Shown here: positions 7,508-36,629 of the stretch, piece after piece
How the letters are laid out: the number at the start of each line of letters is the position of its first letter
How positions within the stretch are numbered: position 1 is the stretch's first letter
Source of the DNA: an uncultured Bifidobacteriaceae bacterium
Lineage (GTDB): Bacteria > Verrucomicrobiota > Verrucomicrobiia > Limisphaerales > JADLHS01
NCBI GenBank assembly: GCA_964364975.1
Contig: CAYIOH010000001.1
Location: 1 to 36,637, forward strand
DNA: 36,637 nt
Direction: 5' to 3'
Notes under the pieces: model-generated
The model's database searches: none
Told to the model about the DNA's origin: nothing
The model's input: the letters and a program-made list of their open reading frames with translations, nothing else
Made by a program: the position numbers and the translations under genes

Positions 7508-7834
7508 CTACTTTTTCAGGGTGCAGCGAAACGAATAACGCCTTTTGCTTTGCTCGGCGAGTTCGCTAAGCAAGTGTGCTGTTTCACTTGGTTGCAAGTG
7601 GCTTTCCCGCGTAAAGAGGATGAGCATGTTAGCAACCTCGAAAACGGATCGCCGCGCAGTGTTGAGAAAATTGGCAAAGTCCACATCGGATGCACTTCCC
7701 GACCCTTCGGCAATGTTGTTTGTAATACTCAGCACGGCAGCACGCAGTTGTTCCACAAAGCGATGGTAGCGCCGCTCGGCCAGCTTTTCGGCCAGCTTGA
7801 ACAGGGGCTGCTCAGGTCTGTGGCGCGTTGCCAA
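7508..7834 (-). CDS. Four-helix-bundle protein (23S rRNA intervening-sequence protein family)
   Basis: 108 aa. EQLRAAVLSITNNIAEGSGSASDVDFANFLNTARRSVFEV matches the conserved core of this family as I recall it. The N-terminal helix looks shorter than usual. Confidence 0.65.
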   Translation of the reverse strand: MATRHRPEQPLFKLAEKLAERRYHRFVEQLRAAVLSITNNIAEGSGSASDVDFANFLNTARRSVFEVANMLILFTRESHLQPSETAHLLSELAEQSKRRYSFRCTLKK

Positions 7835-8842: not shown

Positions 8843-8904
8843 GGTCAGAGATCAGAGATCAGAGGTCAGCCTTCGGTTTTCAGTCGTCAGTCGTCAGCCG
8901 TCGG
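8843..8904. repeat. Two heptamer arrays flanking a short core, intergenic and overlapping the GT4 stop codon
   Basis: GGTCAGA GATCAGA GATCAGA GGTCAG - ccttcggttt - TCAGTCG TCAGTCG TCAGCCG TCGG. The stop codon at 8894-8896 (TGA on the minus strand) is part of the second array. Confidence 0.85.
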
Positions 8905-10135
8905 AGACCACGCAATCCGGTTTTGGGCCTTGCCCGAGCGCCCAGCAGTAAACGGCGTGCATCTGCTCCGCGACGCCCAGCCAACTGTATCTGGTTTCCA
9001 CCAGTTGGCGGCCGCGGGCACCCATCTCGCGTCTCTCCTCATCAGTCTGGCCTATGGCTTGGCCTAAGGCCAAGGCCAGGTGTTCCGCACCGACGTCGAT
9101 ACACCAGCCGCAACGGTGCGTTTCCAATTCTTCCCACGGTGTGGCACGTGTTGTGATCACGGGCACACCACAGGCGAGCGCTTCGCCGACCACCAGGCCG
9201 AAATTTTCGGAGTAGCTTGGCAGAACGAACAGGTCCGCCCCGCGATAAAGCTCCCACCTGGCCTCACCTGCCACTTGCCCAGCGAATTCAAAGTCGTTCT
9301 CAATGTGTAGTTGACGGGCGAGAGCTTCGAGCTCCCGCTGGTGACAGCCTTCATCCCGGCCCGCGACGACGACCCGCCAACCTTGAGGTCGCACACTTGC
9401 CCAGGCGCACAGCAGATCAGGAAGCCCTTTTATTGGGTGTATCCTCCCCAGGTAGAGAAGGACCTTTGATCTGGAAGCGAAGGGCGAAGGACGAAGGGCG
9501 AAGGGCACTTTGCTCTCGGCTCTTGGCTTTTGGCTTAAATCCGGCACTTCGATCCCATTCGGCACGACCGCGATCGCCTGCCGCAGGCCCACCGCGCGAA
9601 ACTCCCGAGCCTCTTCTGGCGAGGTCGCATGCAACACTTGGGCGCACTGCAAGTCACGACGCTGATACAGCACCCAGGCGATCCGTTTCTTCAGCCCTTT
9701 GAATCGGAGTGCCCAGCTGGAGAGCATCCCACGTGGGCTGACGATACGAGGGATTCTGAATTCCCGGCACACTGTGGCCACCGCGTGGTTCGTCAACAAC
9801 CAAAGCCCGGTATCATGCACGAGTTGCACGTCCCCGTTACGAGAACGATCACGGATAGCAGATTTGAATCGCGGTGTCCACTGGGCACACCGCTCAAGCG
9901 CCGAACTGCAAGAGACGAGGGTTGTCTGTGCCGCCGCACGCGAGGGAATCAGAGGCTCGCCAAACCCCGGACCGTAATCGAGCGAAACCACCTCGACCTT
10001 AACGCCATGGTGCCCCAAAGCCTCACACAGTGCTGGCACACTGCGCGAAGGACCACCGCTTTCGGGATGCAATCCCGCAATCGCAAACAGGACTTTGAAT
10101 GAGGTCACGCTAAGCGGCAGCGCTATGCTCGGCAC
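8894..10135 (-). CDS. Glycosyltransferase family 4
   Basis: 413 aa. GT4 N-domain (GGPSRSV...), C-domain LGRIHPIKG, LPSYSENFGLVVGEALACGVPVITT (EX7E-type). A 21-codon low-complexity insert coincides with the array at 9474-9536. The stop codon lies inside the array at 8880-8904. Confidence 0.8.
   Translation of the reverse strand: MPSIALPLSVTSFKVLFAIAGLHPESGGPSRSVPALCEALGHHGVKVEVVSLDYGPGFGEPLIPSRAAAQTTLVSCSSALERCAQWTPRFKSAIRDRSRNGDVQLVHDTGLWLLTNHAVATVCREFRIPRIVSPRGMLSSWALRFKGLKKRIAWVLYQRRDLQCAQVLHATSPEEAREFRAVGLRQAIAVVPNGIEVPDLSQKPRAESKVPFALRPSPFASRSKVLLYLGRIHPIKGLPDLLCAWASVRPQGWRVVVAGRDEGCHQRELEALARQLHIENDFEFAGQVAGEARWELYRGADLFVLPSYSENFGLVVGEALACGVPVITTRATPWEELETHRCGWCIDVGAEHLALALGQAIGQTDEERREMGARGRQLVETRYSWLGVAEQMHAVYCWALGQGPKPDCVVSDG
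9474..9536. repeat. Mosaic heptamer array (9 units = 63 bp = 21 codons) inside the GT4 CDS
   Basis: GAAGCGA AGGGCGA AGGACGA AGGGCGA AGGGCAC TTTGCTC TCGGCTC TTGGCTT TTGGCTT. Translated on the minus strand as SQKPRAESKVPFALRPSPFAS. Confidence 0.85.
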
Positions 10136-10175
10136 ACGATGCCCGCGCGGCTAGAAGGCAAGACGTGAAGGACCT

Positions 10176-11618
10176 TTATTTTCCGCACTGTGATTCCGTA
10201 CCAACTGCCGGCCACCCAGCGACTACCACATCGGCCGGTTTCGGCAGGCGAAATCTCGTTTTGCGCCGGAACCTTCCTATCGCAACGGCGCGACCGTTTG
10301 CACCCGAAAACACGCTCGCTCCTCGAGCGACGCAATAAGCTGCCGCAACGGCTGCACCAGCAGATGACATCAACTCGGCCAACCTCCCTGTTTGCACAAT
10401 AGACAGCGCAAGAACCGACCAACATAAGAACTTAGTAAGATTTTGCTTCTGCACGCTCGCGGCCATCTGATAGTCGCAATGCCGAGTCAATGATCCCAAC
10501 AGGAAATTGCCCACGAACAACCCGATGATTCCGAAGTTGATGTAAAACTCGAATGAGGGGCCTAGCCCAACGCTGGTAGTTTCTCGAAAATTCAGTCCTG
10601 TGTATTTGGCAACGATTTCTGAGTTGCCTACGTACACCGGCTTTCCTGGCCAGAGGATGCGCGGAATGAGAGCCGTGAAGCCTTCGACTATCGACTGGCC
10701 CCACAAGTATTCCACGTGCCCCGCCTGCAGGTTGTTGACCACTCTGCCGAACATCCATCCCTGCGCCAGCCTCGAAGTGATGACCTTCCGTTGCTGTGGA
10801 TCCCAAGGGTTGAACCACTCAAAGTTCTCGAAGGTATTCCGCATCTGTGCGGCGCGTACGGATAAGGCAGCTCCTTTTTCCCAGAGCAGTTCGCGCATGA
10901 CGGACCGGTCTCGCATGTACGTCTGGAAGATTGACATGCCGAGGTAACACAGGATACAGGCCGGAACGAGCATCCTTAATCTCCGTTGCGTTCTCCTTGT
11001 GATGACTGCCGCGAGAAGAGAAAAGATCATCAGACCGTAGCCAGAGAAACCAAGCAGAAGAACGGAGGCCGCGAAAACCACGGTGGCAATCGCAAACGCG
11101 GCCGTCAGCCCAGTTGATCCTGACACTGAGCCGCCGAAATTCGGGCGGAACAGGTAGCAAGCGAAAAGGGATGCAAGGACGATGGCCTTTCCACCGGAAG
11201 CGAGGGCTGTGGCTGTAGGCAAGCCCCGGACAAGAGGGAAAACCCCAAGCCAGACAACCAAGCCGGCCAGTCCAGTGGAATAAAGTTGCTTCCTTGAAAC
11301 TGTGTATGACCCCGGGCGCGTAGTCGCGCCCGTCGCCACCTTCACCTGCCGACGATGAATCAACAGCAAACCAAGGACGAAAGCCAAAAAGCTGATAGTG
11401 CCGTGCCTCTGAGAAACGAGGGCGAGCTGGGTTTCTTCCGAGGACCGGTACGAAAGTGAGACCAGCGCTGGAATCCAGTCATTCAATAAGGCAAAGACCA
11501 AGTACATGAGTGGATAAGCAGTGGTTGATATCCTTTGATCCAGGAACCGTCGTAGCATCAAAACGGCTGCGGACAGACGGATTGCCAGGAGGGCGGTGAT
11601 TTCAAATTCAACTTCCAC
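10176..11618 (-). CDS. Polytopic membrane protein, O-antigen polymerase/ligase-like (Wzy/WaaL superfamily) candidate
   Basis: 480-aa ORF with about 10 hydrophobic segments and one larger loop. Its position inside a glycan cluster and its locally lower GC are typical of wzy. No sequence motif was firmly recognised. Confidence 0.45.
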   Translation of the reverse strand: MEVEFEITALLAIRLSAAVLMLRRFLDQRISTTAYPLMYLVFALLNDWIPALVSLSYRSSEETQLALVSQRHGTISFLAFVLGLLLIHRRQVKVATGATTRPGSYTVSRKQLYSTGLAGLVVWLGVFPLVRGLPTATALASGGKAIVLASLFACYLFRPNFGGSVSGSTGLTAAFAIATVVFAASVLLLGFSGYGLMIFSLLAAVITRRTQRRLRMLVPACILCYLGMSIFQTYMRDRSVMRELLWEKGAALSVRAAQMRNTFENFEWFNPWDPQQRKVITSRLAQGWMFGRVVNNLQAGHVEYLWGQSIVEGFTALIPRILWPGKPVYVGNSEIVAKYTGLNFRETTSVGLGPSFEFYINFGIIGLFVGNFLLGSLTRHCDYQMAASVQKQNLTKFLCWSVLALSIVQTGRLAELMSSAGAAVAAAYCVARGASVFSGANGRAVAIGRFRRKTRFRLPKPADVVVAGWPAVGTESQCGK

Positions 11619-34743: not shown

Positions 34744-36629
34744 CAGTTTCGAGTGAACCGATCGTAAACCTGCCTGGCCCAGCCACGAAGGCCGCGAGAA
34801 TTCGCGCGGGGTTGAGCGTTGAGGGAAAAGGTTTGAGAGTCGCGCAAAAGCCAGTCGCGGACCGGGACGGAAAAGCCGGTCTTGGGCCGGGCAAGCAGGG
34901 CAGCAGGGAGCGGAGAGCGGGGAGTAAGGGCCATGTCGCGCTTGGTCGGAGGCGTCTCGCTGGCGAGCAACGGAGCGACCGCGTGCAGGACCGCCACGTC
35001 CACCAGCGGCACGCGGATTTCCAGCGAGTGAGCCATGCCTGCCCAGTCCGAATCACGCAGGAGTTGGTTGCGCATGTACCAGCACATCTCGAGAGCACTG
35101 ACGCGCACGCGGCCAGAGTTCAGAGGACAGAAGTCAGAATTTGGAACTGATCGCCGATCTCTGATCGCCGATCTCTGAGAAAGCAGACCAGCGGTCAAAT
35201 TCAACAAGGCAAGGGTGTTGAGCTCTTCCCAGCCTTCGCGCACGAGGTCCGGCTCGAGCAATTCAGGCAGTTCCCAAGGCATGAACAGACCACGGCGGAG
35301 CAGGTAGGCATCGGCGTAGCTGGAGCCGTATTCGAGCAGCCCGGCGTATTTGGGCGAGGTGAAGCGATTGAGCACGGGGGTGGAAATCACACGAAGCGCG
35401 CGGCCAAGCGAACGGGCAAAAGGCAAAGGGCGAAGGGCCTTCACGAGGCGCGGAATTTCGCGAAAGCTGGGATAGCCGCCGAACAATTCGTCGCCGCCCA
35501 AACCGGACAGGGCGACCTTCAGCGAAGCGCGCGCGGCGGCGAAGCTGACGAAGTAGGTGTTGACGCCATCCGTGCTCGGCTGATCCATTGCGTCGAAAAG
35601 GCGATTAACGTGAGTTTGAAAATCTCGACGCGCGACCCAAATGGTCTGGTGTTGTGCGCCGTATTGGCGGGCGACGGCTTCGGCGAACGGGACTTCATCG
35701 TTGGCCGTCCCACGAAATTCCTCGAATCCCAGTGTGACCGTGCGCAAACGGCCGCCTTGCTCGGCGGCCAGCGCGGCAAGTGTCGTCGAGTCCAAGCCGG
35801 ATGACAGAAACACACCGACGGGGACATCGGCGATCAGGTGGTGCCGGATTGTGTCCTGGAGAGCGAAGCGCAACAAGTCGTGGAGTTGAGGGCTGGGGGC
35901 TGAGGGTTGAGAGTTCGAGCGTTCGGCATGCGAAAGGATTTCCGTGATTGAGCAGAATTTGCGCTCCCGTCGCCCGCCGCCCTGGCCAACCCAAAGCGTC
36001 GCACCCGGCGGCAAGGACCGGATGGTCTTGAACAGCGTGTAGGGTTCAGGCACGTGTCCCCACAGGAAGAAACCGACGTGCCCGGCCGGATCGGGTGTCT
36101 TCTCAATGTATCCGCCCGCGAGCAACGCCTTCACTTGCGAGGCCGCTCGAAATGTCCTGCCGTCATCCGCAAAATATAGCGGTTTGATGCCGAACGGGTC
36201 GCGCGCCAAAAGCAAGCCGCGTTGCTCGCCATCCCAGAGCGCAAAGGCATACATGCCGCGCAGATCGTTCATCATCGCCTCGCCTTTCTGCGCGTAGAGC
36301 CGGAGCAACACTTCCGTGTCGCTGTTGGATTTGAACACATGGCCTTGTTGTTCGAGCGCCGCGCGCAGTTCGCGGTAGTTGTAAATCTCGCCGTTGAAAA
36401 CGATCGCCAGTTGAAACTCCGGCAGCAGCATGGGCTGCGCACCGGCCGGGGACAGATCAATGATTGAAAGCCGGCGATGGCCAAGACCAACGCGGTGCAA
36501 AGGATCGAACCACTCTCCTGCCCCATCAGGACCACGCAGCGTCATGTGGTCGCGGATGGCGCGCAGTTCCCCGTCATTCACGCCGGGCGCGTCAGAGTTG
36601 TAGGCGAAGATGGCTGCTATGCCACACAT
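34743..36629 (-). CDS. asnB: Asparagine synthase (glutamine-hydrolysing) family amidotransferase
   Basis: 628 aa. MCGIA N-terminal nucleophile, HRRLSIIDLS, GEIYNYRELR, and the PP-loop VGVFLSSGLDST. Three clear repeat-derived segments and one tentative segment lie in the C-terminal half. Confidence 0.9.
   Translation of the reverse strand: MCGIAAIFAYNSDAPGVNDGELRAIRDHMTLRGPDGAGEWFDPLHRVGLGHRRLSIIDLSPAGAQPMLLPEFQLAIVFNGEIYNYRELRAALEQQGHVFKSNSDTEVLLRLYAQKGEAMMNDLRGMYAFALWDGEQRGLLLARDPFGIKPLYFADDGRTFRAASQVKALLAGGYIEKTPDPAGHVGFFLWGHVPEPYTLFKTIRSLPPGATLWVGQGGGRRERKFCSITEILSHAERSNSQPSAPSPQLHDLLRFALQDTIRHHLIADVPVGVFLSSGLDSTTLAALAAEQGGRLRTVTLGFEEFRGTANDEVPFAEAVARQYGAQHQTIWVARRDFQTHVNRLFDAMDQPSTDGVNTYFVSFAAARASLKVALSGLGGDELFGGYPSFREIPRLVKALRPLPFARSLGRALRVISTPVLNRFTSPKYAGLLEYGSSYADAYLLRRGLFMPWELPELLEPDLVREGWEELNTLALLNLTAGLLSQRSAIRDRRSVPNSDFCPLNSGRVRVSALEMCWYMRNQLLRDSDWAGMAHSLEIRVPLVDVAVLHAVAPLLASETPPTKRDMALTPRSPLPAALLARPKTGFSVPVRDWLLRDSQTFSLNAQPRANSRGLRGWARQVYDRFTRN
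34801..34842. repeat. Short heptamer array (about 6 units) near the 3' end of asnB
   Basis: TTCGCGC GGGGTTG AGCGTTG AGGGAAA AGGTTTG AGAGTCG. Encodes SQTFSLNAQPRANS. Same GnGTTGA unit family as 35883-35924. Confidence 0.55.
35114..35197. repeat. Mosaic heptamer array (about 12 units) inside asnB
   Basis: CAGAGTT CAGAGGA CAGAAGT CAGAATT TGGAACT GATCGCC GATCTCT GATCGCC GATCTCT GAGAAAG CAGACCA GCGGTCA. GATCTCTGATC (35156-35166) is the exact reverse complement of GATCAGAGATC at 8850-8860. Confidence 0.8.
35883..35924. repeat. Heptamer array (6 units = 42 bp = 14 codons) inside asnB
   Basis: GAGTTGA GGGCTGG GGGCTGA GGGTTGA GAGTTCG AGCGTTC. Occupies codons 236-249 exactly (ERSNSQPSAPSPQL), just upstream of the PP-loop. 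Confidence 0.75.

Follow-up and report, generated by a model that had tools for sequence, protein, structure and literature searches.

We analysed a 36,637-nt stretch of contig CAYIOH010000001.1 (assembly GCA_964364975.1) from an uncultured soil or freshwater bacterium of the Verrucomicrobiota, hereafter called the window, in which the gene of a family 4 glycosyltransferase (GT4) contains a tract of heptanucleotide repeats between the two domains of the encoded enzyme. With a probability of roughly 0.68, we explain this tract as a compound heptanucleotide repeat, maintained by slippage and constrained by the reading frame, that fills an unconstrained hinge of the GT4 enzyme and is translated as a disordered loop of 21 residues. 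Arrays with a period of 7 nt, typically as paired hairpin arms, would arise and be homogenised via strand slippage or conversion, and arrays within genes would persist only at sites of the protein where any sequence is tolerated, provided that the total length preserves the frame. We directly observed that the tract is periodic and lies in a coil, that the genome contains a whole class of such arrays, that heptamer arrays recur at the hinge of orthologues, and that these evolve in concert at constant length. The tract peptide is probably a passenger without a specific function, and the copy in the window seems to be old and decaying, judging from the imperfect units and from a unit type that is confined to this locus. 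We favour a compound array that grew and decayed in place over the insertion of a hairpin element, since the unit is private, its relative in asnB is a single array, and the hinges of orthologues carry mostly direct, non-folding arrays. The coordinates of all features are collected in Table 1.

On the + strand, positions 9474-9536 read GAAGCGA AGGGCGA AGGACGA AGGGCGA AGGGCAC TTTGCTC TCGGCTC TTGGCTT TTGGCTT. An initial annotation of the sequence had described two translated arrays standing back to back here, with five AGGGCGA-type and four TTGGCTT-type units, and both sequence and translation agree with this description. Its count of exactly nine heptamers is fair insofar as the 63 bases can be parsed in sevens, but the edges are fuzzy; counted in whole codons, the tract covers 9473-9535, shifted by one base from the 9474-9536 first given. 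The nine units deviate from their two consensuses at 10 of the 63 bases, and in arm 2 two degenerate units stand before the part called by Tandem Repeats Finder (TRF). Identity at a lag of 7 nt was 0.72, compared with at most 0.37 for lags 1-6 and 8-13 and with 0.60 for lag 14. As none of 100,000 shuffles matched this lag-7 value of 0.72, chance periodicity was ruled out, and genome-wide only 0.018% of all 64-nt windows reached an identity as high. With 4.3 and 2.7 tandem copies of 7-nt units (TRF), the tract is a heptameric simple sequence repeat. No terminator-like or promoter-like sites were found at positions 9000-10200, and an Rfam search returned no match at E <=1, so known RNA families, promoters and terminators were discarded as explanations of the tract.

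In the host protein, Pfam recognises Glyco_transf_4 (PF13439) at residues 27-196 (E 4e-15) and Glycos_transf_1 (PF00534) at residues 217-377 (E 3e-31). The AlphaFold model, based on an alignment of 113 sequences, adopts the GT-B fold with a mean predicted local distance difference test (pLDDT) of 93 and a predicted template modelling score (pTM) of 0.91, and Foldseek matched it to MshA, BshA, PimB', sucrose-phosphate synthase (SPS) and other GT4 enzymes (template modelling scores of ~0.7, E down to 6e-20). Within the E-x7-E motif of the C domain, E310 is invariant and E318 is conserved in at least 90% of the 113 sequences. Residues 191-223, from the last strand of the N domain (187-190) to the first strand of the C domain (224-229), were modelled as coil. 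For residues 201-220, the pLDDT values of 80 and 64 are the lowest inside the protein, and only the first ten residues (67) come near. The tract ends three residues ahead of the first C-domain strand, VLLYLG, which is followed by the conserved residues R231, H233, P234, K236 and G237. Both the Pfam domain bounds and the coil with the lowest pLDDT confirm the earlier placement of the tract in the inter-domain linker of a GT-B/GT4 enzyme, directly before the start of the C domain, and in the predicted structure it would form a coil at the surface hinge between the two Rossmann domains, as had been anticipated. Neither alignment nor model revealed a conserved sequence or an ordered structure in the tract that would hint at a contact. 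Low-complexity inserts were also seen in other surface loops of orthologues, at about residues 58-105 in P0151/P0150 and past the first C-domain helix in the P0011 cluster, so that the hinge is not the sole permissive site of the enzyme.

The query was aligned with 112 verrucomicrobial homologues of 49-64% identity, and linker residues seven positions apart were identical 388 times across this alignment, compared with 141-313 times for other lags. At least four such matches were present in the linkers of 47 of the 113 aligned proteins (query included), and the N domain showed no such excess. The hinge DNA was read for twelve homologues, ten of which carry heptamer arrays at the hinge, with units that differ between the loci. 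The five loci with linkers of the RKSEI type (L168, L171, L183, L184 and L185) share a linker length of 63 nt with about six units, and the linkers of L169 and L170 measure 60 nt with about five units of other types. L171 and L184 are 90% identical in their DNA; one and the same G-to-A change separates five of their six units, the edge unit being unchanged. This pattern points to homogenisation within the array, that is, concerted evolution, and not to independent mutation, because a one-base change is common to five units while the edge unit is the old one. In a tree of the protein core, RKSEI-type linkers were scattered over many clades and mixed with other types, and the clade nearest to the query (P0002-P0006) has linkers of unrelated sequence. 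Judged by these comparisons, the hinge is a long-standing permissive site, and its content in the window is lineage-specific. Small dispersed repeats translated as LRLDRGEGQGEVSN were observed at the GT4 hinge of P0002, P0036, P0103, P0034 and P0097, and others translated as SASDGERAGVRC at that of P0004, P0006, P0081 and locus L092; the two occupy separate clades, which suggests independent arrivals at one permissive hinge.

The tract had been interpreted as 21 codons inserted into the linker, and the linker lengths argue against a clean insertion of this size. Between the invariant G194 and R231, the 113 aligned proteins span 24-84 residues with a mode of 27-28, and the query spans 38. The outgroup consisted of homologues from other phyla (loci L006-L165) among the matches listed, most of them distant; in these, 16-18 residues lie between the NG and the first C-domain strand, compared with 31 in the query, and a 7-nt period was absent from their linkers. 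L173 has the shortest linker of the verrucomicrobial loci whose DNA was read (18 residues). Relative to homologues without repeats, the net excess of the query linker is only ~13-15 residues, or roughly six heptamers, and the arrays have overwritten the old linker from a conserved P to a conserved R/K rather than been added to it. The expectation that orthologues would lack a homologous 21-residue sequence was borne out, but many of them do contain a heptamer-built segment of other units at the equivalent position. The hinge is a persistent repeat site and not the scar of one event in the source genome. A split gene or a cassette in the hinges of homologues was considered and rejected, since the long tblastn matches in question (L015, L017, L032, L053 and others) were neighbouring paralogous GT4 genes. 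No close orthologue by which the tract could be dated was found: the genome of the same genus has only a homologue of 45% identity, and the best database match was 57-63% identical, depending on the alignment.

Linker length was equal among the members in each of ten orthologue clusters at 90% identity, and no copy-number variation was seen within them. The P0054 cluster has six full-length members, each with six units and of the same length; they differ at few positions, some of which are point changes in the linker. This constancy is at odds with a phase-variable contingency switch, in which the gain or loss of one unit would shift the frame, turn the glycosyltransferase off and thereby vary a surface glycan; we regard such a switch as very unlikely. 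The length of a heptamer is not a multiple of three, the gene lies in a glycan cluster rich in arrays (11 in the window, where 2.3 are expected), orthologues have six perfect units, and the turnover of units among them implies slippage events, all of which would suit a switch. There is also a precedent in the O-acetyltransferase NeuO of E. coli K1, whose translated AAGACTC repeat is in frame only at unit numbers divisible by three and varies from 3 to 53 units among strains (PMC13001214). Furthermore, P0161 of the P0101 cluster is an open reading frame (ORF) of 195 aa on a 2-kb contig that starts right after the array (MKSILFLGRIHP...) and may derive from a frameshifted allele as its C-terminal half. 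However, at most two neighbouring units of our tract are identical, the arrays match at 76-91% (TRF), and the tract thus lacks the long perfect run of the NeuO type; it also lies in the middle of the gene, away from the 5' end, and the constant orthologue clusters are unlike the 3-53 repeats of the neuO strains (PMC13001214).

Constant length would also be expected of a selected flexible spacer, in which the extra 13-15 residues tune the opening and closing of the Rossmann domains or a protein contact, with the repeat serving as the mutational source only. In GT-B enzymes, domain closure is controlled by the hinge, the fold matches include MshA-type structures in open and closed form, and the orthologue arrays are held at about six units despite unit turnover. 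Nevertheless, this explanation is extremely unlikely in our view: orthologue linkers range from 24 to 84 residues without a conserved sequence, constraint by the reading frame alone also predicts constant length, and the low pLDDT, together with the lack of conserved or ordered elements in alignment and model, speaks against a contact.

The source genome (4.85 Mb, 59% G+C, 925 contigs) contains 307 period-7 arrays at a TRF score of at least 36. Among all tandem arrays, period 7 is dominant at high scores and accounts for 101 of 386 at scores of at least 50 and for 26 of 140 at scores of at least 60. Based on crude gene calls, 57% of the arrays lie within genes, compared with 81.5% expected at random, and 31% are intergenic, which is twice the random expectation of 14.5%. 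Adjacent arrays were reverse complements of each other within one mismatch in 47 of 83 pairs (null 2.6%), and no enrichment of direct similarity between the neighbours was seen in these 83 pairs. Some arm pairs form dispersed families. The GTCGAGG/CTCTCGA family occurs at 12 loci with the same arms and unrelated loops and flanks, and the GCGTGTT/ACGCAAC family at nine (contigs C38, C261, C673, C696, C89, C94, C14, C464 and C275). Copies of the latter keep the arms and the loop-proximal stem (GCGTCAAG...CTTGACGC), and the 15-30 nt of the loop centre as well as the flanks are unrelated, an unusual pattern for a simple mobile element. At least 22 inverted pairs stand in frame in the interior of long ORFs with high scores. 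Pfam searches on eight of the host ORFs returned LeuRS, UvrA (two pairs), RecG, two other helicases, a U32 peptidase (two pairs), a response regulator and RlmN. In the leuS, uvrA, recG, helicase, U32 peptidase and rlmN genes, the pairs are strong hairpins of 60-95 nt and -40 to -60 kcal/mol. For 20 of 22 in-frame pairs, the antisense strand gave a more stable fold than the mRNA strand (binomial p = 1.2e-4), a polarity shared by the GT4 tract, whose asymmetry is the greatest of the list. As to the distribution of arrays, the window (1-36637) has 11 period-7 arrays at scores of at least 36, compared with 2.3 expected from the genome average. Genome-wide, 5 of 21 PF00534 genes carry an array, compared with 5.5% of all genes, and the three PF00534 genes with strong arrays all lie within the window.

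The tract itself is predicted to form a long hairpin on the + strand, whose stability was matched by 1 of 200 shuffles, compared with a z of -0.4 for the mRNA strand. With DNA parameters, the z values were -2.0 for the + strand and +1.5 for the other strand. The unpaired loop consists of the four bases ACTT (9511-9514, +). Arms 1 and 2 are imperfect reverse complements that pair on the + strand via G.U, in keeping with the inverted pair as the usual element of the genome; the fold is asymmetric between the strands because these G.U pairs are A.C mismatches on the mRNA. The weak pairing of the mRNA strand may reflect selection against a strong hairpin in the translated or replicated strand. Arm complementarity alone is thin evidence for an inverted pair, with an inverted unit distance of 3/7 at a null mode of 3-4. 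A hairpin as a general property of the GT4 hinge was rejected, as orthologue linkers fold no better than their shuffles.

The main rival to local growth is the insertion of a hairpin element, in which case the tract would be a decayed, gene-less copy of a mobile element with heptamer arms that entered the gene in frame and did not grow in place. The source genome contains eight to nine genes of the 23S rRNA intervening-sequence protein family (PF05635), four of which are bracketed by inverted heptamer arrays (C111:6772-7265, C28:3334-3747, C525:1691-2124 and C712:1731-2158), and all four true inverted pairs with a gap of 350-440 nt enclose such a gene. Together with the dispersed families, whose arms recur at 9-12 or more loci with unrelated loops and flanks, with the 22 in-frame pairs, eight of whose hosts are conserved genes by Pfam, and with the polarity that 20 of these pairs share with the tract (p = 1.2e-4), this lends the rival some appeal. 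In its favour, too, a PF05635 gene lies in the window at a distance of 1.1 kb, and a second one directly follows the L174 orthologue. The former had no clear heptamer arms around it, and the tract contains no PF05635 cargo, the joint between its arms being only 11 nt. We nevertheless consider the insertion unlikely. GGGCGAA x3 (<=2 mismatches) occurs at a single locus in the source genome, and its matches in 40 relatives stay at the control level, so the unit was rejected as a dispersed multi-copy family and is private. In addition, the arms match poorly at an inverted unit distance of 3, the orthologues have mostly single direct arrays at the hinge, neither a target-site duplication nor conserved ends were seen, and the mobility of the hairpin class itself is unproven. 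The single array in asnB has a related unit type. It was correctly pointed out before that asnB has a similar motif: its array at 35414-35438 has AAGGGCGAAGGGC in common with the tract, and the likeness of the peptides follows from this of itself, since translation of a heptamer array passes through each of the three frames.

In a wider and rather doubtful form of this idea, the heptamer arrays of the lineage would be, instead of passive microsatellites, the arms of strand-polar hairpin elements, with or without a gene for the PF05635 four-helix bundle, that colonise permissive protein loops in frame, remain at one site over long periods and undergo concerted rewriting of their unit. Such a long-occupied site would be the GT4 hinge, with the inverted pair of the window as a decayed occupant. 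If this were true, the antisense-stable fold in 20 of 22 pairs would point to a step in spread or survival that involves single-stranded DNA or RNA.

Table 1. Coordinates of the GT4 tract, related features of the window, and heptamer arrays elsewhere in the source genome and in orthologues.
Feature	Position	Strand	Details
GT4 (GT-B, retaining-type) glycosyltransferase gene hosting the tract	8894..10135	-	413 aa; ORF list, Pfam, AlphaFold, Foldseek
Translated heptamer-phased tract	9473..9535	-	codons 201-221 = SQKPRAESKVPFALRPSPFAS; fills the inter-domain coil
Predicted long hairpin	9475..9536	+ (antisense to gene)	RNA fold -32.6 kcal/mol, z -3.5
Arm 1, (GCGAAGG) x4.3	9477..9506	+	TRF score 53, 91% matches; GCCCTTC-type units on the coding strand
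Joint between TRF-called arrays	9507..9517	+	11 nt, degenerate; gap between TRF arrays
Arm 2, (GGCTTTT) x2.7	9518..9536	+	TRF score 31; AAGCCAA-type units on the coding strand
PF05635 gene	7544..7804	-	match 64.8 bits; two genes downstream of GT4, directly downstream of a GT2 gene
asnB single array, GGGCAAA/GGGCGAA x3.6	35414..35438	+	TRF, sequence; unit type related to the tract
PF05635 gene of L174	L174:1913-2173		directly after the GT4 orthologue
In-frame heptamer hairpins, examples	C18:3973-4045, C200:3531-3597, C200:4162-4239, C351:3549-3623
In-frame heptamer hairpins, further examples	C38:11723-11785, C812:650-735, C812:1062-1142
L168 hinge			(GGAAATC)6, perfect
L183 hinge			(GGAAATC)5-6
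L171 hinge	L171:501-1676		(GGAACTC)6
L184 hinge	L184:301-1476		GGAACTC + (GAAACTC)5
L185 hinge			GGAAATT + (CAAAATT)4, array of 4-5 units
L169 hinge			(GAAACCA)5
L170 hinge			(CCAACTC)5
L172 hinge			three different arrays
L167 hinge			(CCATCTC)3.9
L174 hinge			(AGATGGA)3.6, then its complement
L166 hinge			no TRF-called array; G-rich then C-rich stretch
L173 hinge			no array

Several points weigh against the reading as a slippage-maintained compound repeat in an unconstrained hinge. At the level of units, the complementarity of the arms is weak, with three mismatches in seven that are rescued by G.U pairs, and since the units repeat, few independent events underlie the z-score of the hairpin. 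The linkers of most orthologues contain single direct arrays and do not fold, and no relative of more than 63% identity is available that could date the array pair or show the stability of its copy number. Finally, the passenger role of the peptide is inferred, and the constant length in orthologues could also mean that the length of the hinge is selected.

Within these bounds, the tract does not stand out from the unusual and only partly described class of repeats to which it belongs. What the analysis adds is a series of orthologues in which the repeats of a protein hinge evolve in concert, and a strand polarity of in-frame hairpins across the genome. A bacterial "microsatellite" can join a working protein, and the hinge acts as a sink for the birth, homogenisation and replacement of arrays, on which the reading frame is the sole visible filter. 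The orthologue series represents a natural case of concerted evolution within coding sequence, in which the site persists, the number of units stays at about six, and the unit itself is replaced. With the inverted pairing, the polarity of the strands, the brackets around PF05635 genes and the copies that lie in frame in leuS, uvrA and recG, an unexplained class of elements becomes testable. For annotation, such tracts account for odd low-complexity inserts and for length differences in conserved enzymes.

Within the source genome, the closest comparison is with the heptamer-armed PF05635 hairpins, which resemble the tract in two arrays of about four heptamers in inverted order, imperfectly complementary in the case of the tract, around a short loop, in the in-frame copies in conserved genes, and in a site that stays fixed while the unit changes. 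In contrast to this class, the tract has a private unit, arms that pair only via G.U on one strand, and no cargo. Our literature search yielded no paper that ties PF05635 to heptamer arrays and no published description of the hairpin class. Heptameric repeats as such are over-represented in bacteria and include three heptanucleotides of Calothrix and the G-rich repeats of Xanthomonas and Nostoc (PMC4692102). Rehm et al. (2015) described the GGGAATC and GGGGAYT repeats of the latter two as biased towards four units, in some cases inverted, and rarer in coding regions, with fixed positions and variable sequence (PMC4692102). The arrays studied here resemble these repeats and the short tandemly repeated repetitive (STRR) sequences of cyanobacteria (Calothrix, Nostoc) in their tandem 7-nt units, the bias to about four units per array and the genome-wide excess of period 7. 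In both, arrays occupy the same gene junctions in relatives, with extensive variation in length and sequence and an occasional inversion capable of forming a stem-loop. However, strictly defined STRR sequences belong to cyanobacterial hosts, and the homologues analysed here come from metagenome-assembled genomes of Verrucomicrobiota or Verrucomicrobiae. There are 111 canonical units instead of one G-rich unit, and the GT4 array is translated and builds a protein hinge, unlike the mainly intergenic STRR sequences. With NeuO, the tract has in common a coding 7-nt repeat in a glycan enzyme (in the case of NeuO, one of the surface glycan) that is read in three frames and yields a 7-residue peptide repeat. 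The repeat of NeuO is long, perfect and located at the 5' end, where it works as an on/off switch that varies between and within strains, whereas the GT4 tract is short and degenerate, consists of two inverted arrays in a mid-gene hinge, and belongs to a family whose orthologue clusters keep a constant copy number.

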